A DNA stretch of 63,034 nt, counting the filler, from Elsinoe ampelina (lineage: Eukaryota), in assembly GCA_010093995.1 (NCBI GenBank). It is 3 parts of 3 records of this genome, joined end to end, with 100 filler letters (N's around TTAATTAATTAA, not from the genome) between each part and the next. Parts side by side here need not be neighbours in the genome. Positions count along the whole stretch, not along the records: positions 1 to 31,843 come from ML992551.1; 2 more parts are not named here. One strand, 5' to 3'. Below are positions 1 to 28,828 of this stretch, piece after piece. The notes below the pieces were generated by a model that searched no databases, was not told where the DNA came from, and saw only the letters and a program-made list of their open reading frames with translations. Each line of letters begins with the position of its first letter. Position 1 is the stretch's first letter. Both the position numbers and the translations under genes were made by a program.

Positions 1-490
1 TAACCTCTAGTACTATCTTTCTAATATTAGCTTTTAAGTAGTTATAGTATAACTATTAGGGCAGGGTTAGGGCGGCCGAAGGCTAACCCTAGTACTAGTA
101 TAGAGCTATTCTTAGCGGGTCGGCACCTAGTGCTAAACTAAATAGTACTAGCTCTATACCCTACTATATTAGTACTAGTACTAGTACTACGCTAAGCTAT
201 ACTAGTACTAGCACCGTACCGTAGTTAAGTAAGAATAGCACCGTACTATAATAGCGCTATACTACACTACGATAGCACTACACTAAATTAGTACTAGAGT
301 TAAATTCTAGTATTATACTACGTTATAGTACTACGCCTTAGTTAGGCTTTAAGGCGACTATAGTTACTATACTATACTTTAGCATTGCAATAAGTCTATA
401 GAAAGGAAATTTAATAGTCTAGTCTATATAAAAATATACCTGTCTATTTCTTATAGTCTATTCTTATAGCATTATAGAGGAAAGGTCTTA

Positions 491-1072
491 CTAATTAGAG
501 AAAGCAAGTAGGTAGTACTTATTATAATATTTCCTAGTAAGCTAAGAGTCTTTCTATATAATAGTATAACGCTTAGCATAGATAGCGTTAAGATTATAGT
601 CTACTATAGTTATTAGTATAAGGTATTATATATTTTAAATATATAGTTAATATACCTTTAAAATATTCTACTAGTATTGCCTTACTTGCTTCCTAGAGAC
701 ACTTAATAGTATCTAGCGTAAAGCGTAAATCTCTACTTATAAGTGTTAACTTAATATCTTACGTAATGTCGTAAATAACATAGGAGAAGAGAAGCTTACG
801 TATAAGAAGTTTAGTTATCTTCTAGTAGCAACGAATCTCTCGGAGAACAATAGCTATACTATATTAGATATAAGACTATAAGAATTTACTATAAGAAACT
901 AACTACCTAGCTTAAACCTATAGCTCTTCGCCTAGCAAATTTGTCTAGTTAATACTAGTCTAAATTTTGTTACGTAACTACCTATAGTAGGCTTTTTAGT
1001 AGTGGTTTTCTTTGCGCTTTACTTCCTTAGCTTTACCCTTTTTAGAGGTGTTACTTGCTTCTTACAAGCTAT
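491..1072 (-). pseudogene. Histone H3-like variant gene, RIP-inactivated, carried inside the hAT element
   Basis: Minus-strand spliced reading (introns ~42 nt, 903-854, 655-601): [32 protein letters not shown] / AKSYRFKLGT / [63 protein letters not shown] / YNLNAIYAKRYTII*KDS*LTRK. Collinear with H3; stops and many differences are explicable as C>T/G>A changes. Confidence 0.9.
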
Positions 1073-1449
1073 AGCTACGTAAATTTATTAAATTAATTAT
1101 TAAAATTTGTTTATAAAGATAGAGAAGAGTAAGGCAAAAATACTAAGAGCGAGATATTAAGCCTTATTAAGGAATTTATAATAGTATATAGAATATAAAT
1201 TTTGTATTATTATTCTCTACTATAACGACTTTACATTAACAATATTAATAACTTTATATTAGTATAATAATAGGATTAATACCTATTATTACTTATATTT
1301 CTAGCTACTCTATTTACTATATGTATAAGAAATACTAAATCCTTCTCTCCTTATCTTCTTCTTATAAAACTTATATCTTATATTTCGCTCCCTATTATAC
1401 TTAATATTCTACCTTCTCTTACAAATTACTACTAATTCTCGATCTATAA

Positions 1450-2750
1450 TGTCTACTAATCCTATAGATTAGTAAACCTTTAGTAAAGAGGAAGAGATAA
1501 CTAATACCCTAGTAATTAAAACTAAAGAAATAACTAAGGAAGAGGAAGTAATTCTTACTATAATAGGAGTAATTCTTATAGATGCTTCTTATAGTTAAAT
1601 ACTAACTAGACTATAGAGTTTTAATTCTAAGGCTAATAAGATTAAATACTAGATTAAAAATCACTCTTAAAATACTAAAACTCCTCGCTATAGCTACCCT
1701 CTTAGAATTCTATAGTAGAAAGTATAGCTTAGTAATACCTAGTAAGCTATTTAGTAAAGAGATTACGCTGTATAAGCTAGTATAGAGGAGAAAGCCCTTA
1801 CTACTACTAGTAATACTAATCGCTCTATAAAATATATACTTAAGGTAAAACTTAAGAACTCTAAGGAATTCTAAGTAATATTCGATAAGAAGAAAGAAGC
1901 TACCTTCGATATAGTATATAAGAAGATAGCGGAGACTCGCTATTATACCTAGTAGAGTAGTATATTTCTTATAGCATATTCTTACGGTATATCTACTAAT
2001 TCTATATAGGGGAATAGTTAAAGGATAAGTTTATATCTATCTACTAAAAATAGAGTAGTATTTATAAAGCTAATACTCTTCTTCGCTATAAGTAACTCCT
2101 TACTAATTATATAAAGAAGATGCTCTATAACGAGACAAATATATTTCCGAATTGCTAAGTAAAATATCTTCTCGGCACTAGTGGAATTCTTAAGAAATAG
2201 ATCTATAAGATCTACTACAATAGTATTAACTCGCTATATAATACTAGCAACTATAACAATAGTAACTAAGCTAAGTTTAAGAAGTTTATTAAGAATATAA
2301 CACCTACTAAACTCTAAGTAGTATAGGTAGATAATTAGGTATATATTATTTCTTATAGTTGTTTCTTATAGTTATATACTAATCTATTAAAGTAAATATA
2401 AACCTACCCCTAAATTAGAATTTAAGTACAAGAATAACAATATTTTACTTAAATCTAATAATTACTACGTTAAGTATAGTAATAACAAGGTTAAAGAAGA
2501 AGTCGAGAATAACTCTAAGATTAAGAACCTCCTTAATAAGAAACCCGACAAGTACAAGACTAAGGAAGTAGCTAAAATACACTATAAGGTAGTTGCTACT
2601 AAAGACTTTAATAATTCTAATAAAGAGAATTAGGATAAAGATAATAATAAGGCAATAGATAAGAGTAATAATAATAATAAGAAGAGTAAGGGTAAGAACA
2701 ACATAGATAAGAATAAATAGATTAACCTTAAGTTAGGAAAATTAAACTAT
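1450..2750 (+). pseudogene. RIP-degenerate ORF of unknown function inside the hAT element (boundaries approximate)
   Basis: ATG at ~1450 followed by a codon-like E/K-rich reading broken by TAA/TAG; charged low-complexity tail ~2470-2750; no family recognised. Confidence 0.35.
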
Positions 2751-3099
2751 AGTTTTAGTAGCTTTCTAGTTCTACACTATTAAAATTTTTTTAATCTATA
2801 AATTAAAAGTAGCTAACGGATTTTTATAGAGCATTCTTATAGTCTTCTACTCCTTGTTATATAGCTAGTAATATTCTATATCTCTACTCTTAAAATGTTA
2901 GTATTTAATAAAGACTCGGTTAATTCTTAACTATAGATACTCTTAGAAGTTATTACGCTACTACTACCTCTCCCCTACAAGCTTAAAGAGTTCTATGTTA
3001 ATTACTAGAATAATCTATCCTCTACTCGATTCTATAAAACTATTAAAATTGTTAGCTATCCGCTCTACTAACTAGATATACTACTTAAAGAATAGCTAG

Positions 3100-5300
3100 C
3101 TATATAAGCCTAGAAAATATAGTAGCCTATAACATTAATAGGTAGCGAATTAAGAGTTAGCGAAACACGAAACTTACTAAACTAGAATTCTATAACCCGC
3201 TATAGAGTTATTTAGGCCAACTTTAATAAAGGTACTAAGCTTGCTAATAGAATATCTCTTATATATTGTCTCCGCTATAGTAGAGCTTTATAACACCTAA
3301 TAACAAACTCGATTAGTAATAAACACCTAATAAAACATCTCGGACACTAAAGCTACTAGAATATAAAATCTCCTAGCTATAAACGATTAGTAGCTTAGAT
3401 AGCTCTAACGTAATTAAAAGTAAACGCTACTAGTACTATATCCTATATACTATAATTCTCCCTAGAATAATTTAAAAAAGAGCTTATTAAGGTCCTTATT
3501 AATTATAATTAGTTATTCTAAATAGTCGACAATTTCTTCTTTCTCTGATTTATATATTTCCTCTAGCTATATACTAATATTCTAGGTCGAACGCGGGCCT
3601 TAGAGCTATTAAAAGAGTACTATAAGGACATTTAGTCTAATCTTCTTACTAATCTCGGTAGTTAGACAAAAGTTTTAATTATGCTAGATAGCTAGTCTAC
3701 TAATAACTATCTAAGTTTTATAGCTATAAAGGCATACTACATTAACGATAACTAGTAAGTACGTAAGTACCTACTAGATTTTATACTAATTAGTAGACGG
3801 TATACTAGAGTTACGCTTAGCACGGAACTACTAAGGGTTCTAAATAAAAAAAAGATTAATATACGCCTTCTCGCTATTATAGCGGACAATATAAGTAACA
3901 ATAACACTCTACGATCTAAAGTATAATAAGGTCTTAAGAAGAAGAGTATATACTAGTCCTCTATTAAGAATATAATTCTATATCTAGCCTACGTAATTAA
4001 TCTTATCGTATAAGATATTATTTAAGCTTTATAGCTAGAAACTACCGAGGACAATAAGAAAGCTAATAAGCTCGAGAAGTAGTATCTCTATAATATCTAA
4101 ATAACTCTATTAGTTCCGAATTCCCTCTATAAAGTAAGTTATATTTCTTATAGTTCTTTCTTATAATTTTTTAACTAATTTTAAAGCTTTACGCGATTTA
4201 TATTATAATTAACTAATCCTCTTAACACTACTAATACTTTAAATCCCTTTAAGCGTATCTACCTCCTTATAAATAACTCTTAGTCGTTTAGGACGTTTAT
4301 ACCTATTAGAACTCGATGTATAATATATGTAAGTAAGCTATTAAACTTTAACTAATTATTAATAAATAGCTTAACGCAGAGATTGTAATTGTATATAAGC
4401 CCTAAACTAATAAAGCGCTAGCTAATTAAGATATAGTATCTATCGATCGCGTAGATATAAAACACCTTTACTTTAGCTATACTAAATAGGTATATCTAAA
4501 GATTGTTATCTAAATACTAGAGAATTTTAAGAATATAACTAACTAGCTAAGTTAGTCTTATACGCTATTAGTACAATATATATAGCTTATATATAATACT
4601 CTTTTTAACTTTCTTAACGTAGTTAAGTCTACTTAGGAAGAGGACAATAACTTAGACTAGCTATTAGTTATATAAAATGTAGCGAAAGCTAGTTATACTA
4701 AGCTTTCTAAGTATTATAAGTAAATAAGTAGAGGTTAAGGTTTTCTATTTAATTATAGTATAATCTTAGATCTAACTTAGAAACTTAGTACGTATAAGTA
4801 TACTTCGTAGGAACTACATTTTAAATTACTTTACTATAAATAGTTCCTCGACTATCTTAATTACTATAATAATAACTACCCTTCTTAAACTACTCTCTTG
4901 CCTTCTCTACTAGCCTTATCTATTACTTACTAGTTTAAGAAGCCTTCCTTGTCGAATATAGAGAGTAGCTTTATACCTCTAGTATCTAGCTAAGATAATA
5001 TACTTTCGTAAGGGTAGAGTAATATCTATATAATAAGGATAGAAGGGGAGAATTACCTTAGGACTCTACCTATATAGGAAATATTAGAATTTAATATTCT
5101 TTCTTAGTAGAAAGAAAATAAGTACTTATTCCTATAACTAGCTCGTGTTACTTGTAATGTTCTTATAATACTAATTGCTAGTATAGGTGTTAAATGTGTT
5201 TTTAATGTAGCGAAGAATATTATTAGCAATTAAAGGTATAGACTACTTCCGTAGACAATTTAACAAATTATAGTCTCTAAGCTAGTAAAAAACAATCTTT
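3100..5300 (+). pseudogene. hAT transposase relic (boundaries approximate)
   Basis: BED-finger-like CLRY..HL..HL (~3265-3350); MLDS*STNNYLSFIAIKAYYINDN* (3681; LDxWT..F.AI..HYID..W motif); AIIADNISNN (~3873); YLAYVINLIV (CxxH, ~3981); S**KENKYLFL*LARV...IASIGVKCVFN (hAT dimerisation region, ~5102-5206). Confidence 0.9.
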
Positions 5301-8300
5301 AAAACATCTAATCGGCTAAGACGGACAATTTTACTACTGCTAATAATAATACTAATAGCGGATAGATAGCATAAGTAACAACTTTAGAGATATTACTACT
5401 TATAGTTTAAGCGATAAAGAGGTTAACAAGGAAGAAGAGTATAATAAGGACGAAGATCTACTATATAACATTACTAAGGTTAGAGGCTAGTATTCTAAGC
5501 GTATCTAGTTAATAGCTTCTAAGCAATAACGCTCTTATAGTATCTATACTAATACCTACCCTAAAGTACTTCCGCGCGTACCTTCCCTATTACTATATAT
5601 AATTCTACCTACTAATACTAATAGTCTCTCTTCGTTAGTTGCTCTAAGGAAGCTTATTCCCTTACTCGCTAGTATCTTTAATATAACTATATTTATATCT
5701 ACGTTAGTTGTACTAGATTCGCTTATAAAAACGTCAACGAGGAAATCGTATAGATCGACTATAATACAAAGGCTAAAGCTATAACTAATCTCCGCGCTAC
5801 TCCTCTTATTATTAACCTTAATAACTACCCCCGCTATAGTACCTACAACCTTAGCTAACTTATTACCGACACTACTCTCTACACTATTACTAATATTTAC
5901 CTTATTATACTCTCGACTTCCTTACTAGGTTTAAGCCTGATAATAGTTAGGTTACTTTCTAGAATAATACTAATAGTAAAGAGAACAACGAGGGAGATAC
6001 TTCTACCGCTAGTACCGATAGTACTACCTAGAGTAGTAATATAACTACTAGTATAGCTAGAGGTAATATAAATACTTCTACTTTAAGAGCTTATATACGC
6101 CGTTGTTATAGTTAATTTTAGTTACTTATAGGAAGAGGTAACATAATTAAGTCTTTATAAAGTATAAGTCTATATTATTAATAACTATCTAAAGCTATTA
6201 GCCTGCCGACGCTTTAACTACGCTACCTTAATTAGATTAGTTATCGGAAGAAATACTATTATTACTATCGTCGACGTAATTTAACTCCTTCTACTTATAT
6301 TTAACGTTATAGCGTATAGTAAAGAGTAAGAGTAGATCTACTCTTCTGTTAAGAATAAGACAATTAATAGTGCGCTATATGTTAATTAGGTTAAAGATAT
6401 TGTCGGTCTATAAGATATTATACTAATATTTGTTAGATTATAGAGAAAGATTAGATTAGAAATACCTATAAAGTTATAAGGGGTATTATAAGTACGGTAG
6501 GCTTTATAGCAAAGTACCGAACCTCTATAGTTATTATAGATACATTCGGCCTAGATTTCGTAGTTGTTATTAAAGTCGAGATATATAAGAGTTATATAGT
6601 AGATATAGGCTTTATACTAACGTAGGTATAAGGGCCTAGCGCGGTTGCTAGGAGTTATCTTATAAGGCTAAAAGGGGATTAGATCTACTAGGTCGGGGTA
6701 GAGTTAAGCGTAAGAAGGAGACATTATAGAAGAAGGTATTAAACGACAAGAAAGAGAGGTTTAAGAGAAAGAAGGAGGAATAGTAACTAAAAGGTATATA
6801 TATCTAGCGTTACCTATTATAAGAACGACAATATAGATAATAGCTATTATCTGTTATAAAAAAACAATAATACTAATAATAGCTATTATTAAACAATAGC
6901 TATTATTATACTAAGGGATATAAGTAGATTATTAGCTAAGTTACTTCTTTCTCTCCTTAGAAACATTTAAATAACTATCTAGTATACCTTTACGTCGCTA
7001 TAGTATAACTTATACTAACAGTTGCTAGAATTTAAGCAAATTTACTACTATATCTACTACTTGTCTCTCTATTATTCGTTAGGCTAATATTACTTATCGT
7101 AAATTTATTAACAACCTTTAGGCAGAGATTAAGGCCCTAGACGGCCTTATACTTACTATTAACTAGCAATCTAATAGTATTAAGGCAATTCGTAACTATA
7201 CTATAAGTTAGTAGAAAGGCTAAACTACCTAGAACTAATTATTCTAGTCTTAGACTCTACCTAATAGCTTTAGTACTCCGGTTTACTAGTTAAGAGTTAT
7301 AATTTATATAAGAGTAAACTTACTAAAGATAGAATATCCTCCGGATAAAGCAGATAATAAGATAATAAGGTATTAGTTCTAGGTAGTATACAGCTTACTA
7401 GCTAAGTACGTAAAATAGGCTCGTAGGAGTTATATAGATAATGTTAATTAGGTTAATCTTCTACAAATTACTATTAGGTCGTAATTATATATAAGGGTTA
7501 ATAATTAATAACTTTTGCTTCTCTCTAGTATTCTTTACCTACTGTAACTTTAAGCGTTTAGAGCGGAAAAGTAACAAGAGTTATAGGACATAGTAGTTGC
7601 TATAAGAATTTACTATAAGAATAGCGACTCTAGTACAGTACTAGTAAGGGTATACTAAGGACTTAATAGTACTATACTACTTATCTACCGACCTAACCTA
7701 GTACTATACTACGTCTAGAATATATACGACCTAACCTGTATCTAGTACTAGTACGGTGCTATTATAGCTACGGTATAGAGCTAGTACTAGTACTACTAAG
7801 CCCTTAGCGGCACTACGCTAGCTAGAGGCCGACCTAAACCCTAGTGTAGTACTAAACCTAAAGGGGCCGACCCTGCCCTAATAGTTATACTAAGTAGTTA
7901 TAATAGCTAGATTTGCTCTTATAGCCTATAGCTTTTATAGTTTTAGCCTTATAGGTAATTTCTTATAGTTCTAAGGCTTATAGACTTTAAAGTTCTTAAG
8001 CTATTTAACTCTTTTAAAGTATTTAATAAGGCTAACTTCCTTTCTATCCTTTATTAAGGATTTACTAACTATAGAGATACTAAGTTCCTCTTTATTCTAA
8101 AGGTTAGATATAAGAGTATTTAGTAATAATAGTAAGTATATATAATTATAAAGCTTAATAATTAACTTCTTACCTTTGCTATTAGTTAGAGTAAGCCTAA
8201 CTATACTAACTTCTATATTAAGTAGCTTCTTTATACTAATAGCTTATTTAAATTTAAGAACACCTTTATATACCTTAATTATTAAGAACTATAACCTATC

Positions 8301-9592
8301 TTTAATAAAGTACCTTAATATACTAAAGTTATAGATTACTCTATTCTTACTATAGGTTAAGAATAATAATATAGATACTACTACTACTCTATAGACTAGT
8401 ATAATAATATTAATATTAGTGTTAGAGCGTTTATCTAATTTACCTACCTTAGTAGGTTTTCTAGATTCTTTAATAGCTACTTAACCTTTAACTTTCTTAG
8501 TCTTTAACTTGTTACTTTTACCTTTAGCCTTTATACCTTTATTATTTAACCTATCTTTATTATCCCTTTTACTCTAACTCTTTAGTACTTTCTTAGGGTA
8601 CTACTTAAAGTAATCTATATTAGAGTAGATATAATAAGTATACTAAGTATATTAATCCTTAATATAACTAGCTACTCTATAAATAGAGTTTAGATTAGTT
8701 CTTCTATTATATAGGGGCTTCTATATTCTAAAAGAGTCTATTATCTCTTTAAAACTCTTCTTATAGTTAAGAGTAGATCTCTTACTCCTTAACTATTTAG
8801 TAGTCTCTATTTCTATAATAAATATAGTCTTAATATAGTATAGAGGGAGCCTAAACTTATCTAGTTTAGTACTAATAGTGCTTACTCTTTACTCTATAGT
8901 AATAGTATATTAATAATAGTACTTTATAAAATCTTTATAGTACCTTTAGGTGTTCTAACTTATTATAATTACCTTATTAAGGTTATAGATAGCTATATAT
9001 AGCTTATATAAAATAATAGGTTTAAATATAGCTTTAATAATATCTAGAAGTTCCTTTAAAGTCTTCTAAGTTATACTATAGTAAGGTCTAATAGATTTAT
9101 AAATCCTTATTATAATAATACTATAAGTAATTCTATTATTCTTATACTAGGTCTTATTCCTAACCTTATAGAGTACCTTAGTACCTTTACTAGTATCTAG
9201 GGCTAGTTCTTTAGGCTTTATAACTACTAGTATCTAGTTAATGTTATAAATTGTATATCTAAGTATATCCTTTTTAAAGAGAGCTACCTTAAGAGTTAAT
9301 CTCTAAGTATTATAGTTACTCCCTCTCTTAAGAATCTAAGTCTTAAGCATTTTTACTAATCTAGACATAATAATAGTAATTAGCTAAAGGCCTATTAATT
9401 TAATTAATGTAATTAGCTTATTTAAGCTGTTTAAGCTATTTAATTAAAGGGTTAATATAGGCTACTATAAGTGTTTATCTTAATGTAGCTAGTCTAGAAT
9501 TTAGTATAGGCGGCTTAGTAATCCTTTTAATAATAACACGCTTAATTTGCTATAGCTTTAAGTGCTTTTATAGAAGCGCTAGGCTTATAACC

Positions 9593-9734
9593 TATTATAA
9601 CTAGCAAATCGGATCGAGAGACATATATTTCATTTAGAGAGTTATAATAACTAATTTATCTACTATGCGTGCGCTGACTTATTAGTACTAGTTCTTTAGT
9701 ACTAGAGAAGCTATACTAGCCTTCTATTATAACA
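9593..9734 (-). repeat. Copia family A LTR (5' LTR of the minus-strand copy), 142 bp
   Basis: Reverse complement of 9766-9907, 16350-16491 and 35839-35980. Confidence 0.9.
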
Positions 9735-9765
9735 TCCTTTACCGGACTAGAATATTATACAAGGA

Positions 9766-12700
9766 TATTATAATAGAAGGCTAGTATAGCTTCTCTAGTA
9801 CTAAAGAACTAGCACTAATAAGTTAGCACACGTATAGTAGATAAATTAGTTATTATAACTCTCTAAATAAAATATATATCTCTCGATCCGATTTGCTAGT
9901 TATAATAGGTTATAAGCCCGGCGCTTCTACAAAAGTACTTAAAGCTATAGTAAATTAAGCGTGTTATTATTAAAAGAATTACTAAGCCGCCTATACTAAA
10001 TTCTAGACTAGCTACATTAAGATAAACACTTATAGTAGCCCGTATTAACCCTTTAATTAAATAGCTTAAACAGCTTAAATAAGCTAATTATATTAATTAA
10101 ATTAATAGGCCTTTAGCTAATTACTATTATTATGTCTAGATTAGCAAAAATGCTTAAGACTTAGATTCTTAAGAGAGGGAGTAACTATAATACTTAGAGA
10201 TTAACTCTTAAGGTAGCNNNNNNNNNNNNNNNNNNNNNNNNNNNNNNNNNNNNNNNNNNNNNNNNNNNNNNNNNNNNNNNNNNNNNNNNNNNNNNNNNNN
10301 NNNNNNNNNNNNNNNNNNNNNNNNNNNNNNNNNNNNNNNNNNNNNNNNNNNNNNNNNNNNNNNNNNNNNNNNNNNNNNNNNNNNNNNNNNNNNNNNNTAG
10401 AGCAAAGAGTAAGCACTATTAGTGCTAAACTAAATAAGTTTAGGCTCCCTCTATACTATATTAAAACTATGTTTATTATAGGAATAGAGACTACTAAATA
10501 GTTAAGGAGCTAGAGATCTAGCCTTAACTATAAGAAGAGTCTTAAAGAGATAATAGGCTCTCTTAGAATATAGAAGCCCCTATATAATAGAAGAACTAAT
10601 CTAAACCCTATTTATAGAGTTGCTAGTTATATTAAGGATTAATATACTTAGTATACTTATTATATCTACTCTAATATAGATTACTTTAAGTAGTACCCTA
10701 AGAAAGTACTAAAGAGTTAGAGCAAAAGGAATAATAAAGATAGGTTAAATAATAAAGGTATAAAAGCTAAAGGTAAAGGTAACAAGTTAAAGACTAAGAA
10801 AGTTAAAGGTTAAGTAGCTATTAAAGAATCTAGAGAACCTACTAAAGTAAGTAAATTAGATAAACGCTCTAACACTAATATTAATATTATTATACTAGTC
10901 TATAGGGCAGTAGTAGTATCTATATTATTATCCTTAACCTATAGTAAGAATAGAGTAATCTATAACTCTAATATATTAAGGCACTTTATTAAAGATAGGT
11001 TATAGTTCTTAACAATTAAGGTATATAAAGGTATTCTTAAATTTAAATAAGCTATTAGTATAAAGAAGCTACTTAATATAGAAGTTAGTATAGTTAGGCT
11101 TACTCTAACTAATAGTAAAGGTAAGAAGTTAATTATTAAGCTTTATAATTATATATACTTACTATTATTACTAAATACTCTTATATCTAATCTTTAGAAT
11201 AAAGAGAAACTTAGTATCTCTATAGTTAGCAAATCCTTAATAAAGGATAGAAAGGAAGTTAGCCTTATTAAACACTTTAAAAGAGTTAAATAGCTTAAGA
11301 ACTTTAAAGTATATAAGCCTTAGGACTATAAGGAATTACCTATAAGGCTAAAACTATAGAAGTTATAGGCTATAAGAGTAAATCTAGCTATTATAACTAC
11401 TTAAAAGCTAACATTAGAAAGATAGCACTAGAGGTTAAACTATACTAGTAACACTATTCTCTCCCTTACTAAAAGTTAAGCTATTAGATTAGAAGAACTT
11501 TAAATATTAGATCTTAGCTACTATAAACTATATACTATATTAAAGGTATAGAAAGTAGTATTAAGAGAACTAAGAGATATACTAAAGTACTTACTAGATA
11601 AGCTTTATCTAGACCTTATTAGTCCTATTAAACTATAGTTAAGTAAGAGCTATAAATACCTTCTCTTTGTAATATATAGTAAAAGTAAGTACAAGTTTAT
11701 TACTATTCTCTTTCTTAAGAGTAATATATTAGTAGCAATTAAACTTATCTATATAAGGAACAAAATGGCCTATAATAAGCTTTTATTCGTCTTTATCTCT
11801 AATAGAGGAAGTAAATTTAAGAACTATAAACTAGTAATAGCTATTTATCTTAAAGGGTAGAGATAGAATATCTCTATACCTAATACTTAATACTAAAATA
11901 GTAAATCTAAGGCTACTAATAAAGTAGTTATTCTTAGAACAAGGTATATCTTTGTTAATTATAGAGCACCCCTTAAACTCTAGTATATAGTTATAGAGTT
12001 TATAATTTATATTAGTAATAGAATTACCTATACTAAAACTAAGAAGATCCCTATATAAGAGCTAAAAAAGAATCTTCTTAATAATAATAGGCTAGTCTTA
12101 TTAACTTATATTAGACGCTTTAGCTATAGAGCCTATATCTATAACTAATATATTTCTAAATTATACAAATTCTAAGCTAGAGTACTACTTAGTTAGTATA
12201 TTAGTATATAGAACAACTTAACAACTAATTACCTTATCTAGATACTCTATTAGTATTATACTTAGTAAGCCTAGAAGAGAAAAATTATTATATTACCCTA
12301 TATAACATTTAATAAGAATATAGTCTATAAAGACTAAGTAATATAAGTTATTAAATAGCTATATATCCTATAGGTATAATAACCTAAGGCTTTATAGCTT
12401 TAAGAGGAGCAGACATTTAGTAGTAATTATAATTAAGACTATAGCTATAATTAACTACCCTTTAGTTATAAGAATCTATAAACTACTTAGGCTAAACAAC
12501 CTTAAGCTAAATAACTAATATCTAACTACCCTTTAATCCCTAGATATAAATAATAATTATCTACCCTAGTTAAAGAATAGAAGGAGTAACACTAATATTC
12601 TAAACTAGATCCTTAACCTATTAATAAATAAGGGAAGCAACTTAATATTACTAATTATAAAGGTAAAGACTTTATAACACTACTACCTAAAGTTATTAGT

Positions 12701-15700
12701 GAACTATATTTAACCTTTAATCCTATAGTTAATATTAATTAACTACTAATATATATATAGAATAAGAATGTTAACTTCCTTATTATACTATTTAATATAT
12801 AACCTCTAACTAGTAAAAGGAAGAGATCTCTCTTACTATAAGAAACTATTAGAAGGTCCCTTAGAATATATTACTAGATTAATTATAAAAAACTTAATAA
12901 TACTAAGATTATTAGATCTATAGCTATTAATTTTAAGCTAGACCTATAAATAGTAAGAGATATACTATCCTCTCCTAAAGGTTATTACTAGTAAGCTATA
13001 ATAGAGGTAGAGTAGAAGGCTCTAACTAACTCTAAAACTCTTTTAATTATTAAGAAATTATAGGCACTAAGAGGTGTTAGGCTAATAATAGGCAAATAGG
13101 TCTTTAAGACTAAGAGGCTTACTAATAGTAAAGTTAAAAGATATAAGGCTTATTAGACTATAAGAGGCTTTACTTAAAGAGTAGATATTAACTTTATTAG
13201 AACCTTTATACTAACACTAAGAGCTAAAACTAGAAGAGTAATTCTTATATATACTCTTTATTATAACTAGGTCATTATAATAGTAGATATAGTTACTATA
13301 TTCCTTAGACTAGATATTAATATTAAGAACTATATCTCCTACCTAGAAGGCATACCAATTCCTAGTAAACAGAACAAGCTTATTGTTCTTATAAAGGGCT
13401 TATATAGGCTTAAGTAAGCTACTACCCTCTAGTATAACGCTATAGTTAAGGCACTTCTATTACTTAGTTTTATTAGATCCTATAGTAATACCTATCTCTT
13501 TATTAATAAGTATTATATAGTTCTTATATATATTAATAACTTTAGGATTATTACTACTAAGTAGAAGTATATAGATAAGCTAGTTAAAGATCTTTATCTT
13601 AAGTTTCTAATAAAGATTATAAACTTAAANNNNNNNNNNNNNNNNNNNNNNNNNNNNNNNNNNNNNNNNNNNNNNNNNNNNNNNNNNNNNNNNNNNNNNN
13701 NNNNNNNNNNNNNNNNNNNNNNNNNNNNNNNNNNNNNNNNNNNNNNNNNNNNNNNNNNNNNNNNNNNNNNNNNNNNNNNNNNNNNNNNNNNNNNNNNNNN
13801 NNNNNNNNNNNNNNNNNNNNNNNNNNNNNNNNNNNNNNNNNNNNNNNNNNNNNNNNNNNNNNNNNNNNNNNNNNNNNNNNNNNNNNNNNNNNNNNNNNNN
13901 NNNNNNNNNNNNNNNNNNNNNNNNNNNNNNNNNNNNNNNNNNNNNNNNNNNNNNNNNNNNNNNNNNNNNNNNNNNNNNNNNNNNNNNNNNNNNNNNNNNN
14001 NNNNNNNNNNNNNNNNNNNNNNNNNNNNNNNNNNNNNNNNNNNNNNNNNNNNNNNNNNNNNNNNNNNNNNNNNNNNNNNNNNNNNNNNNNNNNNNNNNNN
14101 NNNNNNNNNNNNNNNNNNNNNNNNNNNNNNNNNNNNNNNNNNNNNNNNNNNNNNNNNNNNNNNNNNNNNNNNNNNNNNNNNNNNNNNNNNNNNNNNNNNN
14201 NNNNNNNNNNNNNNNNNNNNNNNNNNNNNNNNNNNNNNNNNNNNNNNNNNNNNNNNNNNNNNNNNNNNNNNNNNNNNNNNNNNNNNNNNNNNNNNNNNNN
14301 NNNNNNNNNNNNNNNNNNNNNNNNNNNNNNNNNNNNNNNNNNNNNNNNNNNNNNNNNNNNNNNNNNNNNNNNNNNNNNNNNNNNNNNNNNNNNNNNNNNN
14401 NNNNNNNNNNNNNNNNNNNNNNNNNNNNNNNNNNNNNNNNNNNNNNNNNNNNNNNNNNNNNNNNNNNNNNNNNNNNNNNNNNNNNNNNNNNNNNNNNNNN
14501 NNNNNNNNNNNNNNNNNNNNNNNNNNNNNNNNNNNNNNNNNNNNTATATCTATACTATATACTTATTTAGATTTTATATATATTATTATTTTAAGTATAT
14601 TATTTATGCTACTACTACTTATTAAGCTATCTTATTTGTCTAAAAACTTAAAGTAAGTTACTCTAACATTAAAAAGAGAGAAAGAAAAAGCTATTATAAC
14701 CTTATTACTAGCTACTTATATCTAAGCTATATCTACTACTTAATACTAACTACTATCCTATACTACTAACTACTTATTACACTCTACTAATTACTTCCTT
14801 AGAGGAGTCCTTATTCTCTTAAAGCTCTTAAAGCTAGCACGAGATCTACTACCTATTAATATATTAGAGTTAGCCCTTAACCTTTCGTTTCTTAGGGAAG
14901 ATCTAGATATATTCCTTATATAACCTATACTACTAGCTAAACCTTATATAGTAAAGGTGTAAATAGTTAGAAGACTACACCTCTTACTAGATATAACCTT
15001 AGCTATACTTATAGCAAACCTAGCTATAATAACCTATAGGGCCTAGAGCTTAGCCTATATAGAATTTACTAGATTAGCAAAGTCTATAGGGACTATAATA
15101 AAGTAGCGTAAGTTAGGATATACTAAGGACTTATTAATAACATTAGTAGGCCTACTACGAGAAGAAGTAGGCCTTAGTAAGAACCTTTAAGGTAAAGCAC
15201 TACTAAAAGAGAAAGACCTTAGAAGCTTAGTTAGTAGGTATATTAGGCTATATAGAATAGGTTAGGTAATAGGCCTTAAACTACTTAGAGTTTCCTTTAG
15301 AGGCCTTAGAGTTAGAGTATACTAGATAAGAGAGTAAGTCTTATACTATAGACTATAGGTATAGTTAGTATAGGCACTATAGAACTAGCTAGAGACTATA
15401 ATATACTACTTAAACTTACTAGCCCTACTAAGGCTACTATTATTACCTAGAGTAGAGCCCTAACACTTAGTATAGCAGTTAGTACTATAGTAAACAACCC
15501 TTCTAGTAGCACTAGTTCCTATTAAGGTAGCTATATAAGTTAGAGAACTAGTTAAGTTAATTGTCTTAGTTAGGTTCTTTACCTAGATAGTAGCTATAAC
15601 TAAAAGATCTAGGTTACTAGCACTAAAAGCCTAAATAGTAGAGGACTTAAAGACTAAGTATAGCAAGTTATAGTTATAGTATCTAAGGTCCCTAAGGCTA

Positions 15701-20124: not shown

Positions 20125-23069
20125 ATGTTCCCTTTCCAGTATGCGGTCTTCGCCGCTTTGCTTGGCCTCGCCTGGGCCCAGTCGACAGTGAATACCATAA
20201 CCCAGACTTTCGTCGGGAGTAATGGGGTTACCACAGTGCCCTGGCAAGATCTCCCCGGTCTCAGGGTGCCGAAAAAGTAGAGCTGACGAGGTTTGGCAGG
20301 CCTCCTTCATGTACGGCTCTGGATACCAGGACTTCGGCTGTATACGATTCCAACGCTCAAGAATTGTATTATTTCATGTGCGGTGAGTTGCAGAAGGCCC
20401 GAGAACGAAACAAGATTTTAAATCGACCAAGAATTGGCTTGCTGACGTGGAATTTAGGTGCCGCCACCAACAATCCTGGTCTTGCCACCTTCGGAGCCAA
20501 TACTACCTGGCGAGACTGCTTCGCTCGGTGTGATAACACCGCGGGATGTACCAGCTTCTCCTTTAACAATGCAGCGAATGGTATCAACTTCGGAGAGACC
20601 AGCGGGGATTGTGTCCTGAAAGCTGCTGCGCCTCCCGCCTTCTCGCAGACCGATACCCTCCAGTCCACTCGTATCGGTGTAATCCGATACAGGTTCGGTG
20701 AGAAACGATCCCCAGCAAAAAGCTTCTTGATCGACTAACAGGAGTAGTCAATACCGCTACCATCGGAACCACGACCTCGGCCACAACGACGACGAGTTCG
20801 TCTTCATCGAGCTCCACCTTCCCGACGACGACAACAAGTATCACGACGACCACTACCACCGGACTGACGGCCACCGTGACGGCCACGACGCTTTCGACAG
20901 TCTATGGTACCACCACGGCCACCTCGGTAAGAGTAAGCTCAGAATGAAACGCACAGGCAAGGCTAACTATGATGCAGACGGTCGTATCCACCGCAAGTGT
21001 GACACAGGTAAGTCTTCCAACCGCAAAGGCTATCCATGACTGACGTCGGGATTTAGACCCAGAGCGTGACCCAGAGCGTGACGCAGGTAAGCCAGCGAAG
21101 TTGCAAGCCCTCCCACCATTTGCTAACCTCACCAGACGCAAAGCGTGACAGGCACTCAGGTTCGCAGCAGATACATATCCTCAGTATATGACTCAAGCTG
21201 ATCGACTCCAGACCTTGACGACAACAAGCTTGGGTACTGCAACCCAGACTCAAAGCTTGACGGCTAGCATTACCACAGTGAGCGTCGAGAGCAGGATACT
21301 TGGGATGAAGCTAATGAACTTAGACCCAAAGTGTGACTGGTCCAACTCAAGTCGGTAGCAAGTTCCCAGGATCATGTCACCAGAAGCTGACTTCAGCCCC
21401 AGACACTGACGACGAGCGTCGGCACGGCCAGCGTCACCACAACTCAGAGCCTCACAGCTGTAGGAACCTCGAGCACGCCGATTGATATCCGGCTAACAAC
21501 CTTAGACACTGAGCGTGACTGGGCCGACTCAGGTTCGAAACTTGTGGGGACTTGAGCTGGCTTGACTAACGAGGATATCAGACCTTGACAACAACTAGCC
21601 TAGGCACCGCCACCACAACAGCGATTACAACCGCCACTGCTAGCGTTACGACTGTAGGCTAATTCATCGTCTGCGTAAACCGAGGCTAACAGAGATAGAC
21701 TCAAAGCGGTCCTACACAGGTTCGAGGGCAACTCAAACCCATGTCTCGATTCAAGCTGACTTCAGAAGACTCTCACTACGACTAGTCTAGGTACTGCTGT
21801 GAGTAAATTGGCATCCTTGGATGAGCAAAGCTGATCAATGTTTCCAGACTCAAACCCAGGTAAGACTTGCAGGTGCGATGTGCTACGACTCCTGCTGATA
21901 GCGTAGACTACAAGCGTGACAGGCCCGACCCAGGTATGCCGAGCTTTCTTGATGGCCGACAATGCCATACTGATGATGCTAGACACTCACGACGACCAAC
22001 ACAGCCACTCTCAGCTTGACCGGAACAGCCACAGCTGTGAGTCTAGAGATGAAGTGCTAATTGAGGCTATCACTGACTCCCGAAAGACCCAGACTGGCAC
22101 AGTCACCGGAACTCTCACCACAGTGTCGGACCGAGTAGTCACCCAGGTCGTCACAGCGGTATGATGTCTTTTCTGATACGTGTAAATCCACCGCTGACAT
22201 CTCCAGACGGCCACAGAGACGGTGAGGAGGACCAGAGTCGTCAAACGAATGGTGAGAGAGCCTTTGCTGATACAGCCCCCTCTAGTCGACGATCGATGAG
22301 ACGAGCACTTCGTCTCGATCCTCGTAATATCACTCCATCCATTCAGAGCGAGAAGCTGACTGACGCCATCAAGGTCACCCAGCTCTAGTAGTTCCAGCAC
22401 GACTCGAACTACGACGACGACGACGACGTAAGTGTTGATTTCAGGTTTAGGGAGAATTCCGCTAACAGGCCCCCAAGAACGACTTCCTCAAGCTCTTCCA
22501 GTACTTCGTCTCCAACCACGACCTCGACCAGCTCCTCCTCGTCTTCAAGCTCGCTCTCGACCTCGTCCTCGTCCAGCTCTTCCTCGTCTAGCTCGTCCTC
22601 GTCTAGCTCGTCCTCGTCTAGCTCGTCCTCGTCTAGCTCGTCCTCGTCTAGCTCGTCCTCGTCTAGCTTGTCCTCGTCTAGCTCGTCCTCATCTAGCTCA
22701 TCATCGTCCAGCTCTTCCTCATCTAGCTCGTCTTCCACCTCGTCCTCGGTCTCCGCTTCAACTTCGTCCTCCAGCTCCAGCTTATCCTCCAGCTCGTCAT
22801 CCTCCTCCAGCTCGTCGTCCTCTTCCAGCTCGACTGCTTCCTCTACCGCCTCGCTAACGACCTCTTCCGCTCTCACCCCATCGAGCTCGTCAAGCTCCAG
22901 CTCCAGCCCCAGCTCCACCCTTGCCTCCACCAGCTCCACCAGCTCGAGCAGCTCCTCCTCCTCTACCAGCAGCAGATCTTCCTCGACGGCTTCGACAACC
23001 ACCGATGGGCCCTCATGCCCGAACCCGGTGACCGTCTACGCCACAATCACCCCGACAATCACAGTCTAA
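20125..23069 (+). CDS. Secreted PAN/Apple-domain mucin-like protein with micro-exon-encoded Thr-rich stalk and Ser-rich tail (~22 exons)
   Basis: Signal peptide MFPFQYAVFAALLGLAWA; PAN/Apple Cys pattern YFMC..WRDCFARCDNTAGCTSFSF..GDCVLK. The manual splice model (first intron GC-AG) stays open to ...TDGPSCPNPVTVYATITPTITV* at 23069. Confidence 0.85.
22500..22990 (+). repeat. Ser-coding low-complexity tract with a 15-bp tandem unit (TCGTCCTCGTCTAGC)n
   Basis: About 6-7 near-perfect 15-bp units around 22590-22700, inside the last exon of the PAN-domain gene. Confidence 0.85.
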
Positions 23070-26450: not shown

Positions 26451-27352
26451 CGCGGGGACTGGGTGTTTTTGTTTGGCCTTCTACTTGGAAGGGTTTGTTG
26501 GTTGGGCTGACTGATCTTCTGGAGATGGACGCTGAGGTGGGATGCCGGGTGACGTGTGGGCACGCTTGTGCGGGAGACCGGAAGAGACCTGAGTGATAAT
26601 CTGCTATCAATTGACGAGCTAGGCAGCATGTAGAGACATGATTGCTGACTGAGCAGACTACAGGCGAGAGCGGAGTGTCGGTGCCTTTGACGACGGGTCT
26701 GTGTTGGTCTGGTAGTATCTATACAAGCTATACTACCACATATTGCCATAGACGTAGATCCATGAGAATTCATTAGGTTGATCTGGTAGTTCTTGCCCAC
26801 TCGGCACTACCAGATCCGTTCGATCATTTCCAGAGAGGTGGCCCATAGCGTGACCGACCATCACCTCACCGATCGTTTTTGGGTGGGGGCCGCTGCGTAG
26901 ATACTCATAAAGTGACGTGTATGGTCACACGCCTTTAGCAGGATACCCAAGCAATGATACGTGCTTCAGATATATGTAGGCTTGGAAAAGGATTGTGTGG
27001 AGGAAGAGTGATGTTGGCCGAATCGAGATCGAGGTTCGCTCGTTCCATGCCGAGGTTGTCAGTCTCACAGACGCAGGAAATGGCGAGGTGCCATATTCTA
27101 ATCGAGGTCTGGTGGGATATATGGCGTGCAGAATCCTTGCTAAGTTACTAGCAGCTTCAGAGCCTGCTGGGTGCTGGTAGTTTGTATATCAGGAGTCCTA
27201 CCAGAACCGAAGTTGGTCAGAAACTTTTGCGTCCCAGAGGCGAGCGTGAGAATGAAGACGCGTGACGCGTCTCGCCGCGTTTTGTGGAATTGTCCCCTGA
27301 CGTCGGTCTCTTCCACCTGCATGCCACACATCGACATGCACATATCATTGCT

Positions 27353-28828
27353 ATGAAGCCATGGACCGGCGATATCAGTATCTCTGGTAGTACTCCGATC
27401 AAAGGTACGCCCTTCTACTGCCACAAGAGATCTCTTGCTGACCACGAACGATTAGATGTTCGTGTCGCGCAATCAGATGGCGCTGCACTGGCGCACAACG
27501 CCACATTGACACTCTTGTCCCCCGTAGACATCGCTCATGTACCACTCCATATCATATGTAGTCCGCCAACCGATGTAACGACGAGTAGCGAGGCCACCGC
27601 AGCCTGGTTCAGTCAGCTGCTGTGCAAGGGGCCGAATACGACGACCGAATGGTGGAACAGCGCCGCGCTGCAATCAGAAGCTGGATTCCTGGCCAGAATC
27701 GACGGTGCGAAGGGAGGCAACCCCGGCCAGATCAATCCGACAGAAGTGCTATTCTTCGCCTCTCGATCATCACCAACAAATGGCCTGCCATCACCGCCAC
27801 GATCATCGGAGAATCAGCCGGCACAGGACGAAAGACCCATCTCGATCAAGGCGATACTGCTGTCTTCTGATCTGTTGACTGTAGATGTATCAGCTACTCA
27901 ATTGACACCGCCACCATCTCCCAGACCGGCGGACTCATTCATTGAAGGAGCATTTGTTCTGAATCCTGATGCGTCAGCCACGTCAAACAAGCGCAAATCT
28001 CTGTCAGATACCTTCGATGAAGCTTCCAAGCGGCGCAGGCTTGCGAAGAAGGGCATCAAGCCTGGTGATCTTACCGACTCAGCGCAAAGTCAAGTCGCTT
28101 CGATCATCCCCTCATCAAGCCTTCACAAGTTCTCCACATCCAACCTCCAGGACAAGCGCCCCCTCAGCCGCGCCGCCTCACTACAGGTCTCCAAATCACG
28201 TTCCCAATCACCGGCCCCTCGCCCCACCACATCTCATGCTGAAGCCAAAATTCCCTCCAATCCCATCGAGCAACGCAACAAGGACCTCGTCTCCCGCCTC
28301 ATCCTCGCAGGCATGCGCCTCCACGGTCTCTCACAGACCAAGTCAAAGACAATCTCTCGAACCGAAGAGGAGAAAGCCGCCGACGAGGAATTCAAGCTCA
28401 TCTACCACAACACTCTCAAAGCCATCTCCTTTGCTTTCCGGGCTAGCATCGGCTCGACAGATCTGAAACCTCACACAGTGCTCGTACAGGAGAAAATGGA
28501 GACCATGCTGACGCTATTCTGCTCCGATCCGCTGTCTCAGCCTGGATTTGGGATGGAGGACATGACGCCCAGTGGGAGGACGCCGTTCAAGACGCCGACT
28601 ATGCAGCAGGGTGGTGCGGCCGGGTTCCCTTTCCCTGCTTCAGTGGAGAAGGTGGTGGAGTCTAGTCCGGCACAACAGATTATGGCGAGGGGGCTGAACA
28701 TCTCTGTGCCAGTGGTGGGTACATCAGATGGGCGCACAGGTCAGAGAGAAGGTGAAGGCGAGATGACAGGCAAAGCACCAGTCCAGCCTGCCGCGCAGAG
28801 CGGACGTAAGCGAGCACCAGGTTTCTGA
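27353..28828 (+). CDS. SLD7: Sld7 C-terminal-domain protein
   Basis: NKDLVSRLILAGMRLHGL...EFKLIYHNTLKAISFAFR...METMLTLFC resembles the Pezizomycotina Sld7 C-terminal domain; first ATG at 27353. Confidence 0.7.
   Translation: MKPWTGDISISGSTPIKGTPFYCHKRSLADHERLDVRVAQSDGAALAHNATLTLLSPVDIAHVPLHIICSPPTDVTTSSEATAAWFSQLLCKGPNTTTEWWNSAALQSEAGFLARIDGAKGGNPGQINPTEVLFFASRSSPTNGLPSPPRSSENQPAQDERPISIKAILLSSDLLTVDVSATQLTPPPSPRPADSFIEGAFVLNPDASATSNKRKSLSDTFDEASKRRRLAKKGIKPGDLTDSAQSQVASIIPSSSLHKFSTSNLQDKRPLSRAASLQVSKSRSQSPAPRPTTSHAEAKIPSNPIEQRNKDLVSRLILAGMRLHGLSQTKSKTISRTEEEKAADEEFKLIYHNTLKAISFAFRASIGSTDLKPHTVLVQEKMETMLTLFCSDPLSQPGFGMEDMTPSGRTPFKTPTMQQGGAAGFPFPASVEKVVESSPAQQIMARGLNISVPVVGTSDGRTGQREGEGEMTGKAPVQPAAQSGRKRAPGF

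Follow-up and report, generated by a model that had tools for sequence, protein, structure and literature searches.

A RIP-inactivated hAT transposon in Elsinoe ampelina carries an intron-containing histone H3-like gene

The analysed window (the whole stretch of Elsinoe ampelina DNA, 63,034 nucleotides) contains a 7,848-bp hAT transposon that extends from TIR to TIR at positions 45–7892, and a histone H3-like gene is present inside this element. Very probably, the element is a RIP-inactivated copy of an autonomous-type hAT family with an intron-containing, H3-derived gene that was amplified together with the element.

The TIRs, the target-site duplication (TSD), an empty target site and a hAT dimerisation domain assign the element to the hAT superfamily, as the original prediction had proposed. 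Three characters by which such elements are recognized are present (8-bp TSD, short TIRs and the C-terminal hAT dimerisation domain). The element is flanked by one arm of a palindromic host repeat, and the empty site is located in the opposite arm. This paralogue is uninterrupted and contains AGTAGTTA as a single copy. After removal of the element and one copy of the TSD, the flanks match the empty site at 148 of 157 positions. Additionally, 14 of the 16 occurrences of TAGTACTA within the element lie no more than 350 bp from one of its two ends. The left boundary is also visible in four contigs of the DNA run X1, which diverge into unlike flanks exactly before position 45. A second copy of the element was not found within the 63-kb window, where blastn returned only five short HSPs of 35–48 nt. 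The features of the element are listed in the table.

Table. Positions of the features of the hAT element and its H3-like gene in the window
Feature	Position	Strand	Evidence
Left target-site duplication AGTAGTTA	37–44	.	Identical 8 bp at 7893–7900
Left TIR, 23 bp	45–67	+	100% complementary to 7870–7892
Left subterminal region, TAGTACTA-rich	68–395	.	Motif distribution
Exon 4: α3/C-terminus, two RIP-type stops, terminal TAG at 493–491	491–600	-	
Intron 3 relic, 55 nt, GTATAT...CTAAT...TAG, phase 1 in Asp codon of F-E-D	601–655	-	
Exon 3: αN end, α1, loop 1 with 5-residue insertion, α2	656–853	-	Pfam, PDB, tblastn
Intron 2 relic, 50 nt, GTTAGT...CTAAT...TAG, phase 1 in Thr codon of P-G-T	854–903	-	
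Exon 2: AKSYRFKLG(T), counterpart of KKPHRYRPGT	904–931	-	
Probable intron 1 relic, 54 nt, AT from GT by TpG>TpA, TTAAC branch, TAG end	932–985	-	
Exon 1: N-terminal tail, start codon relic ATA, one RIP-type stop	986–1072	-	
hAT transposase relic, N-terminal and catalytic part, many RIP stops	3186–4136	+	tblastn with P0175: 33% over 317 aa, E 7e-34
hAT transposase relic, middle part, other frame, after intron-like gap	4259–4795	+	tblastn with P0175: 38% over 184 aa, E 2e-21
hAT C-terminal dimerisation domain relic	5042–5278	+	Pfam PF05699, 32.9 bits (cut-off 21.4), E 5.6e-8
Right TIR, 23 bp	7870–7892	-	Pairs perfectly with 45–67
Right target-site duplication AGTAGTTA	7893–7900	.	Copy of 37–44
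Paralogous uninterrupted empty target site, other arm of palindromic host repeat	11281–11437	-	Flank comparison

The H3-like gene (491–1072) lies on the minus strand, is divided by three short introns into four exons and is oriented opposite to the transposase. A spliced H3 relic approximately 450 bp inside the left TIR and divergent from the transposase had been predicted. The four H3-homologous pieces are indeed collinear, and the distance from the 3' end of the gene to the first base of the element is 446 bp. Joined by a script according to their coordinates, the pieces form a single frame of 423 nt (141 codons) without indels.

The gaps between the pieces have the appearance of spliceosomal introns. 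The gaps of 50 and 55 nt start with GT and end with AG. The 54-nt gap starts with AT, preceded by T, as results from a RIP-type TpG>TpA change of GT. A CTAAC-like branch motif is located 14–17 nt from the 3' end in all three gaps. RIP introduces transitions only and no indels. Since the lengths of introns 2 and 3 are not multiples of three, these introns are beyond the reach of RIP, and the prediction of introns is borne out by interruptions that RIP cannot create. Intron 1 is less certain because 54 nt is a multiple of three; it is a probable intron and could also represent an in-frame insertion in the tail.

The homology to H3 is strongest in exon 3. When three pieces were scanned against Pfam, the middle one (654–851) matched the Histone family (PF00125) with 28.4 bits (cut-off 26.4, E 2.1e-6), and the tail and the C-terminal piece gave no match. 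The middle exon thus passes the profile check for a histone fold. In tblastn searches of the whole window with two pieces of canonical H3, a single locus was detected (851–657, E 2.7e-10 and 1.2e-9). The only other match is at chance level (E 1.0). The core exon gave 159 matches in the PDB, and each of the best 60 bears the name histone H3. Accordingly, the presence of an H3-like gene inside the hAT element is confirmed.

The residue features listed in the original prediction were all recovered. According to the alignment, loop 1 is extended by a five-residue insertion (LTLIS). Gln68 is replaced by Ser, which reversion of RIP cannot restore, and Thr107 by Tyr. Phe84 and Lys4 are retained. The tail is seven residues shorter than that of H3 and aligns with it at the ARxKQ motif and at a PRKQ-like stretch, which is present if RIP-type changes (Leu from Pro and a stop from Gln) are assumed. 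No ARKS motif was found in the tail. The C-terminal end reads TI-x-(Q)-KD. Canonical H3 is characterized by an invariant tail, in which K9 and K27 each lie in an ARKS motif, and by a canonical loop-1 length; both are hence missing. The alignment of the core with H3 covers 91 positions, of which 47 are identical, a further 19 become identical by reversion in the TpA context and six more by any C>T/G>A reversion. The differences at the remaining 19 of 91 positions are beyond explanation by RIP, which argues for a protein that had diverged before RIP.

An intact relative of the H3-like protein was sought in two ways. A word-index search of longer proteins gave 27 scored candidates, none of them at E≤0.001. 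An exhaustive search of the representative library yielded 194 matches at E≤0.001, headed by proteins that are either ordinary H3-like or fusions of several H3 units. From the 150 matches listed (of 194), 27 were examined and the same loop-1 insertion is absent in these. The names of ten such matches contain no CenH3 or H3L label. The library is clustered at 50% identity, so that a canonical H3 representative could mask an intact relative. Because no intact relative was found, the former function of the H3-like protein can only be inferred.

The copy is strongly affected by RIP. Its TpA/ApT ratio is 1.87 and its (CpA+TpG)/(ApC+GpT) ratio is 0.21, compared with 0.49–0.65 and 1.17–1.33, respectively, in GC-rich blocks. 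The six internal stops of the H3-like gene are TAA or TAG and all of RIP type; four of these fall on glutamine codons of H3 (Q55, Q76, Q93 and Q125). Every frame of the element contains dozens of stops, and the element is not an intact, potentially mobile copy. Given these extreme RIP indices, the copy is dead and the gene is a pseudogene; nothing in it is functional at present.

Contigs of two DNA runs (X1 and X3), which come from different studies and bear different organism labels, were mapped to positions 1–1500 of the window at 80% likeness. Run X1 contributes 666 contig pieces, which cover all 30 bins. The 1652 pieces of run X3 cover 27 of 30 bins and leave 251–400 uncovered, a gap to which no meaning is attached. 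Many non-identical contigs cover 401–1300 in both runs. In the H3-like part, single positions show an alternative letter in as many as 12 distinct contigs of X1 and 44 of X3, and 58 of the 59 differing positions in X1 are transitions. Estimates of the copy number and of the proportion of copies with the gene depend on these short Logan contigs, from whose depth copies cannot be counted, and X1 may be the source sample of the window itself. As the contigs of two studies carry many non-identical variants of the H3 part, the H3-like gene belongs to a multi-copy family and was amplified with the element. A one-off insertion into a single copy does not agree with these data. None of the listed runs that carry the sequence is an RNA run. 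Two runs guessed to be RNA (X4 and X5) gave no contigs on 1–1500, which is no proof of absence.

The transposase relic on the plus strand was recognized by its homology to P0175, an intact relative of 723 amino acids, which is collinear across 3186–4795. P0175 is the only match found in the search for relatives of the transposase (E 4.8e-13) and itself has no Pfam family at E≤0.01. Dimer_Tnp_hAT is the sole significant Pfam family among 27 plus-strand pieces. A Pfam scan of the element in six frames gave two significant families, Histone and Dimer_Tnp_hAT, and detected no significant family in 1073–3185 (~2.1 kb) and 5279–7869 (~2.6 kb). For the RNase-H-like DDE catalytic core and the BED-type zinc finger of hAT transposases, the observation is thus limited to the collinear homology to P0175, as Pfam recognized no additional domain. 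Pfam matches to Reprolysin_3 and DUF7891 in the element are far below the cut-off and were discarded as chance hits.

A plausible history of the element can be outlined. A gene derived from H3, with three short introns of the spliceosomal type, would have been acquired near the left end of the element in opposite orientation to the transposase. The introns suggest that this capture took place at the DNA level. Because the gene lies between the TIRs, it was amplified together with the element by transduplication. Cut-and-paste mobility of the element is presumed from what is known of the hAT family. RIP then struck all parts of the element alike. In the present copy, the ATG of the H3-like gene is now ATA, the GT of intron 1 is now AT and six premature stops have arisen, and the transposase is likewise full of stops. 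Before RIP, the cargo would have encoded an H3 variant of approximately 139 residues with a normal histone fold, a loop 1 extended by five residues and a short tail with Lys4 and without both ARKS motifs.

This kind of cargo has already been published, for the H3L gene of Pyrenophora in 2013 and for Mycosphaerellaceae in 2019, and Elsinoe adds to it. The precedent in Pyrenophora tritici-repentis that had been named in the original prediction is real. Manning et al. (2013; PMC3538342) describe, in the part of the paper available, a multi-copy hAT element with a dimerisation domain and an H3-like gene between its TIRs. Its product is neither canonical H3 nor CenH3; the N-terminal tail is altered and the helices vary. 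The 26 Pyrenophora copies are nearly identical, intact and transcribed and occur in forms of 5.6 kb and 2.3 kb, whereas the element described here is 7.8 kb long and RIP-dead. By the published description, the tail of Pyrenophora H3L has insertions, whereas the tail of the Elsinoe relic is shorter than that of H3 (PMC3538342). Plant Pack-MULEs and others similarly capture host gene DNA between TIRs and amplify it, as summarized in the same paper (PMC3538342). The plant cases are mostly fragments or chimeras in non-autonomous elements, whereas a complete intron-containing gene and a transposase are combined in one element here.

The closest precedent had been missed in the original prediction. 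Dhillon et al. (2019; PMC6710886) studied six Mycosphaerellaceae (Pseudocercospora fijiensis, P. musae, P. eumusae, Cercospora zeae-maydis, Sphaerulina musiva and S. populicola) and report H3-like copies that are carried by hAT elements, lie in AT-rich blocks and have been killed by RIP. Since RIP-killed hAT-H3 elements are already described there, the novelty of the present element is greatly reduced. In the accessible part of that paper, the elements share with the present one TIRs of approximately 20 bp, an 8-bp TSD, an H3-like cargo and RIP stops in all copies. They are larger (~9.5 kb with one or two H3-like copies, compared with 7.8 kb and one copy here), and the authors could not find a hAT dimerisation domain, which is detectable here. 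Both systems belong to the Dothideomycetes; the order differs, as Elsinoe is a member of the Myriangiales. Elsinoe is not among the species of the 2019 survey as given in the available text (PMC6710886), and the predicted extension to another lineage thus appears to be right. No report of Elsinoe with a hAT/H3 combination was found in the literature searched, which does not extend to subscription journals. With a third fungal order, the association of hAT elements with H3-like genes no longer looks like a mere curiosity, but like one that recurs or is old.

The elements may go back to a single ancient capture shared with Mycosphaerellaceae, and perhaps with Pyrenophora H3L, followed by vertical or horizontal spread. 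This appears rather unlikely, although the element type and the fate by RIP are the same and the gene structures correspond in part. The hAT consensus of C. zeae-maydis, read by eye from the available part of the source, has intron-like gaps of 51 and 52 nt (GTAAGT...AG; PMC6710886). Introns 2 and 3 share codon and phase with these gaps (Thr of PGT and Asp of FED, likewise by eye), and the two positions are a character for distinguishing one from several origins. However, the shared positions may simply be ancestral H3 introns of Dothideomycetes; the single paper retrieved on H3 intron positions in ascomycetes (PMC10878826) contains, in the passages covered, no statement about such introns. 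Furthermore, the C. zeae-maydis consensus, again by eye, has a loop 1 of canonical length, a GGVKKP-type tail and no tail intron, and thus lacks the loop-1 insertion and the stripped tail of the Elsinoe relic (PMC6710886). A motif look-up in both orientations found neither the TIR of the window nor eight motifs of its H3 region in the six consensus sequences of that study as available, although RIP could hide distant homology from such a look-up (PMC6710886). The authors of the 2019 study, in the accessible text, also found no similarity to the Pyrenophora element (PMC6710886).

The intron relics bear on the published mechanism as well. For P. fijiensis, the 2019 paper describes, in its available part, an intronless retrocopy, whereas three intron relics are present here, two of them with lengths not divisible by three (PMC6710886). 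Such clear relics favour capture of genomic DNA over capture of a transcript.

A role of the cargo in favour of the transposon is improbable. According to this explanation, an H3 variant with an altered loop 1 and without the ARKS motifs of K9 and K27 would have entered nucleosomes during the active phase of the element and blunted heterochromatic silencing or biased targeting. The tail, which keeps Lys4 and the PRKQ-like stretch and has no ARKS motif, is consistent with this, as are the 19 of 91 core differences that are not of RIP type and the frame free of indels over 423 nt. Elements of the hAT type with H3-like genes are now found in three orders of Dothideomycetes, and Pyrenophora H3L is transcribed, as stated in the available part of the 2013 paper (PMC3538342). 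The authors of that study call a chromatin effect only possible in the same part (PMC3538342). Because RIP makes no indels, a frame that is open after discounting RIP indicates only a recent, RIP-driven death. Moreover, every copy sampled is RIP-diversified and no intact relative was found. An anti-silencing role of the putative cargo would be purely speculative, and the present copy is a pseudogene. The broader idea carries an equally low probability: the H3 variant, with introns, a remodelled loop 1 and no K9 and K27 methylation motifs, might be a selected hAT cargo, kept or repeatedly recruited in at least three orders (Pleosporales, Mycosphaerellales and Myriangiales), whose nucleosomes would have evaded heterochromatic marks as long as the elements were active. 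In that case, the origin from a retrocopy proposed in the literature would not hold for Cercospora at least, since intron-like gaps occupy the same two positions in its consensus.

The relic was originally called CenH3-like. A longer loop 1, the loss of Gln68, a change of Thr107 and an end such as TI-x-(Q)-KD are marks of CenH3. The relic resembles CenH3/CENP-A/Cse4 as a relative of H3 with a histone fold, a longer loop 1, a lost Gln68 and a divergent tail, and the loop-1 insertion and the replacement of Gln68 by a residue that RIP reversion cannot convert back are real. Beyond these two features, the designation is weak and finds no support in the PDB matches of the core exon, since none of the best 60 of 159 is named CENP-A or Cse4. 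The C-terminal piece of 23 residues does not discriminate: its best PDB match has an E-value of 0.024, and Cse4 is one of the best 60 with a score equal to that of H3. Overall, the relic is closer to H3, with Phe84 and parts of the H3 tail (ARxKQ and PRKQ) kept, and it is the multi-copy cargo of a transposon, whereas CenH3 is a single host gene. An origin from, or identity with, a centromeric H3 gene is thus very unlikely. The probability that the H3 likeness and the introns arose by chance from AT-rich, RIP-degraded sequence is negligible: the GC content of 0.30, the low complexity and the many stops would allow for it, but the Pfam match lies above the curated cut-off, no other tblastn match in 63 kb is better than E 1, and four collinear pieces together span the full length of H3 and yield a single frame upon splicing, so that this reading is already refuted by the Pfam, PDB, splicing and tblastn evidence.

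As a RIP-inactivated copy of a hAT family with an H3-derived gene, the element is also a marker of how the AT-rich, RIP-degraded blocks of the Elsinoe genome were built. A flanking gene points to Elsinoe as well: its product shares 97% identity with a protein of Elsinoe ampelina and 79% with one of E. batatas.

A hAT transposon of 7,848 bp, its transposase ruined by stops, carries a histone H3-derived gene on the opposite strand (table). Four minus-strand pieces cover histone H3 end to end; spliced by coordinates, they add up to 423 nt and read as 141 codons in a single frame. By itself, the stretch 654–851 matches the Pfam family Histone (28.4 bits against a curated cut-off of 26.4, E 2.1e-6), and the two shorter pieces alone have no Pfam match. 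There is no other H3-like locus in the 63-kb window and no other histone match in the element.

Coordinates of the hAT element and its H3-like gene
Feature	Position	Strand	Remark
Target-site duplication (TSD)	37–44 and 7893–7900		AGTAGTTA, direct 8-bp repeat flanking the TIRs
Terminal inverted repeats (TIRs)	45–67 and 7870–7892		23 bp, perfect
H3-like tail piece	1072–986	-	aligns with the H3 N-terminal tail
H3-like second piece	931–904	-	AKSYRFKLG and first base of a Thr codon
H3-like third piece	853–656	-	from (T) to LVEYFK
H3-like last piece	600–491	-	from (D)YNLNAIYAKRYTII*KDS*LTRK to the stop
P0175 match, first part	3186–4136		E 7e-34
P0175 match, second part	4259–4795		E 2e-21
hAT dimerisation domain	5042–5278	+	PF05699, 32.9 bits (cut-off 21.4)

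GC-rich gene blocks (GC 0.51–0.63) and AT-rich blocks (GC 0.11–0.33) alternate along the window, and the element with its H3-like gene lies in the first AT-rich block (1–16 kb). TpA/ApT is 1.87 in the element and 0.49–0.65 in the GC-rich blocks; (CpA+TpG)/(ApC+GpT) is 0.21 and 1.17–1.33, respectively. Such values in the element are a classical hallmark of repeat-induced point mutation (RIP).

The present copy of the H3-like gene is a pseudogene. Its first codon is ATA, and six internal stops, TAA or TAG, occur at codons 18, 49, 70, 92, 120 and 124; four of these fall exactly at the H3 positions Q55, Q76, Q93 and Q125. The core was compared over 91 aligned positions with a canonical H3 of animal type, composed from two proteins. 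Forty-seven of the 91 are identical as read, a further 19 match by reversion in TpA context and six more by any C>T or G>A reversion. The 19 that RIP cannot account for include Q68>S, T107>Y, S57>I, F78>I and Y99>I. Loop 1 contains the insertion LTLIS (15 nt), which is in frame and too short for an intron. Seven residues shorter than that of H3, the tail retains A-R-x-K-Q together with a (P)RK(Q) stretch and lacks any ARKS motif. Before RIP, the product would have been an already diverged H3 variant with a core identity to H3 of at most about 79%. The alignments bear out the features described in the original prediction, i.e. a long loop 1, Q68>S, an altered T107, a tail with K4 and PRKQ but without ARKS and a retained F84.

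These features had also been called CenH3-like. Neither the extended loop 1 nor the missing Q68 is an artefact of RIP, and both are real, but the gene is not classed as CenH3. The core piece matches 159 distinct chains of solved structures at E ≤ 0.01; every one of the 60 top matches bears the name histone H3, which places the core nearest canonical H3, and the H3 alignments show a five-residue gap facing loop 1. Furthermore, F84 and portions of the H3 tail are retained, and the gene is multi-copy transposon cargo. The C-terminal piece is non-discriminating (best E 0.024; one Cse4 chain in the best 60, with a score equal to that of H3 chains).

The H3-like pieces are separated by gaps of 54, 50 and 55 nt. 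The frame-shifting gaps of 50 and 55 nt cannot have been created by RIP because RIP yields transitions only. They start with GTTAGT and GTATAT, respectively, and both end with TAG and contain CTAAT, the CpA>TpA product of CTAAC, 14–16 nt before the 3' end. Intron 2 interrupts the Thr codon of P-G-T and intron 3 the Asp codon of F-E-D, both in phase 1. The 54-nt gap starts with ATAGGT after a T and, like the others, ends with TAG; TTAAC lies 17 nt before the end, and the start is the TpG>TpA product of GT. It is probably the relic of intron 1 but, since it is in frame, may instead be an insertion in the tail.

The insertion site of the element belongs to a large palindrome with arms at 7891–8896 and 10398–11403 (1006 nt, 96% complementary), and the uninterrupted target is retained in the other arm at 11437–11281 (minus). 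With the element and one TSD copy removed by script, the joined flanks match this segment at 148 of 157 positions; it is as near an empty site as one window allows. The same palindrome (7891–11437 and 1–44) is RIP-degraded and has further arms at 9283–9739 and 9761–10217 (457 nt, 96%).

The element contains 16 occurrences of the motif TAGTACTA; 14 fall within 350 bp of either end, and this clustering fits the expectation for hAT subterminal repeats. When 27 plus-strand pieces of the element were scanned with Pfam (stops as X), the hAT C-terminal dimerisation domain was the sole significant family. The sole database relative found for the transposase, the intact 723-residue protein P0175, matches two collinear parts in two frames with an intron-like gap between them. 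The database gives P0175 the precomputed Pfam labels PF27041/PF27039; a Pfam rescan gave no family at E ≤ 0.01. About 4.7 kb of the element, 1073–3185 (plus) and 5279–7869, has no domain recognisable by Pfam. The left stretch contains a Lys/Asn-rich reading frame at ~2400–2720.

The window holds no second copy of the element. Further copies were sought in contigs of three sequencing runs from two DNA studies, X1 and X2 (both from one sample of organism A) and X3 (organism B), in which the share of window 1–8000 present is 0.47, 0.44 and 0.05, respectively. Aligned to 1–1500 at 80% likeness, X1, which may be the window's own source, yields 666 contig pieces that reach all 30 bins, and X3 yields 1652 pieces that reach 27 of the 30, the entire H3-like part included. 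At single places within the gene, the number of distinct contigs with an alternative letter reaches 12 in X1 and 44 in X3. Of the places that differ, 58 of 59 (X1) and 30 of 33 (X3) are transitions. In four X1 contigs the match gives way to dissimilar sequence immediately before position 45, where the TIR begins. These contigs suggest many RIP-diversified copies, H3-like gene included, at differing insertion sites in two organisms, although depth is not copy number. One of the listed variants, 847 A>G (plus strand), replaces the window's Val by the Ala that canonical H3 has in T-V-A-L-R-E; copies with less mutation are therefore nearer H3.

A hAT-borne H3-like gene is of an already published kind; what is new is its occurrence in this lineage, its introns and the specific features of this variant. 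In Pyrenophora tritici-repentis, Manning et al. 2013 (PMC3538342) describe hAT elements of two forms (5.6 kb and 2.3 kb) with an H3-like gene, H3L, which is intact, transcribed, present in 26 copies and matches neither H3 nor CenH3. Dhillon et al. 2019 (PMC6710886) report a Mycosphaerellaceae hAT element (~9.5 kb, 20-bp TIRs, 8-bp TSDs) that amplified H3-like copies, 784 in Pseudocercospora fijiensis and 135–520 in five other species, all RIP-killed and in AT-rich blocks. Their survey covers Capnodiales, Pleosporales and Venturiales and does not include Myriangiales. In the full-text literature outside subscription journals, no report of a hAT-H3 element in Elsinoe was found.

By motif look-up in both orientations, the TIR and eight H3-region motifs of the element are absent from the six published consensus sequences (PMC6710886). 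The C. zeae-maydis consensus (supplementary file 2), inspected by eye, has a GGVKKP-type tail and a loop 1 of canonical length, and the element differs in both. Its H3 homology is broken by intron-like segments of 51 and 52 nt that start with GTAAGT and end with TAG. One interrupts the Thr codon of PGT and the other the Asp/Ser codon after LFK(E), so that in codon position and phase the pair corresponds to introns 2 and 3 of the element. Judged from the sequences, either genomic H3 DNA with ancestral introns would have been taken up separately, or one capture would be common to both elements. Under both alternatives these segments conflict with the intronless retrocopy that the authors take the H3-like sequence to be; the retrocopy model thus misfits the Cercospora consensus.

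Transduplication is the best-supported origin of the cargo. A complete, intron-bearing H3-type gene would have become enclosed by the two ends of an autonomous hAT element and multiplied along with it, and RIP would afterwards have mutated the entire family. The variant may formerly have served the transposon, e.g. as a histone not methylatable at K9 or K27.

A GC-rich block contains a 514-codon ORF (27284–28828, plus) with 97% identity to a named Elsinoe ampelina protein, 79% to E. batatas and 53–45% to E. fawcettii, E. australis and Sphaceloma murrayae; it bears a Sld7 C-terminal domain (precomputed PF18596). Most likely, judging by this single gene, the window derives from Elsinoe ampelina or a very close relative (Dothideomycetes, Myriangiales). 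Within the AT-rich blocks, 13001–15000 and 32001–33000 have a GC of 0.11–0.17, below that of the element (0.29), and the second block contains a 482-bp tandem unit in two copies (34960–35913, 93% matches). A 15/45-bp tandem array of CTCGTCCTCGTCTAG in a GC-rich block (22515–22748, ~11 copies) is probably a coding repeat, Asp/Glu- or Ser-rich, on one strand.
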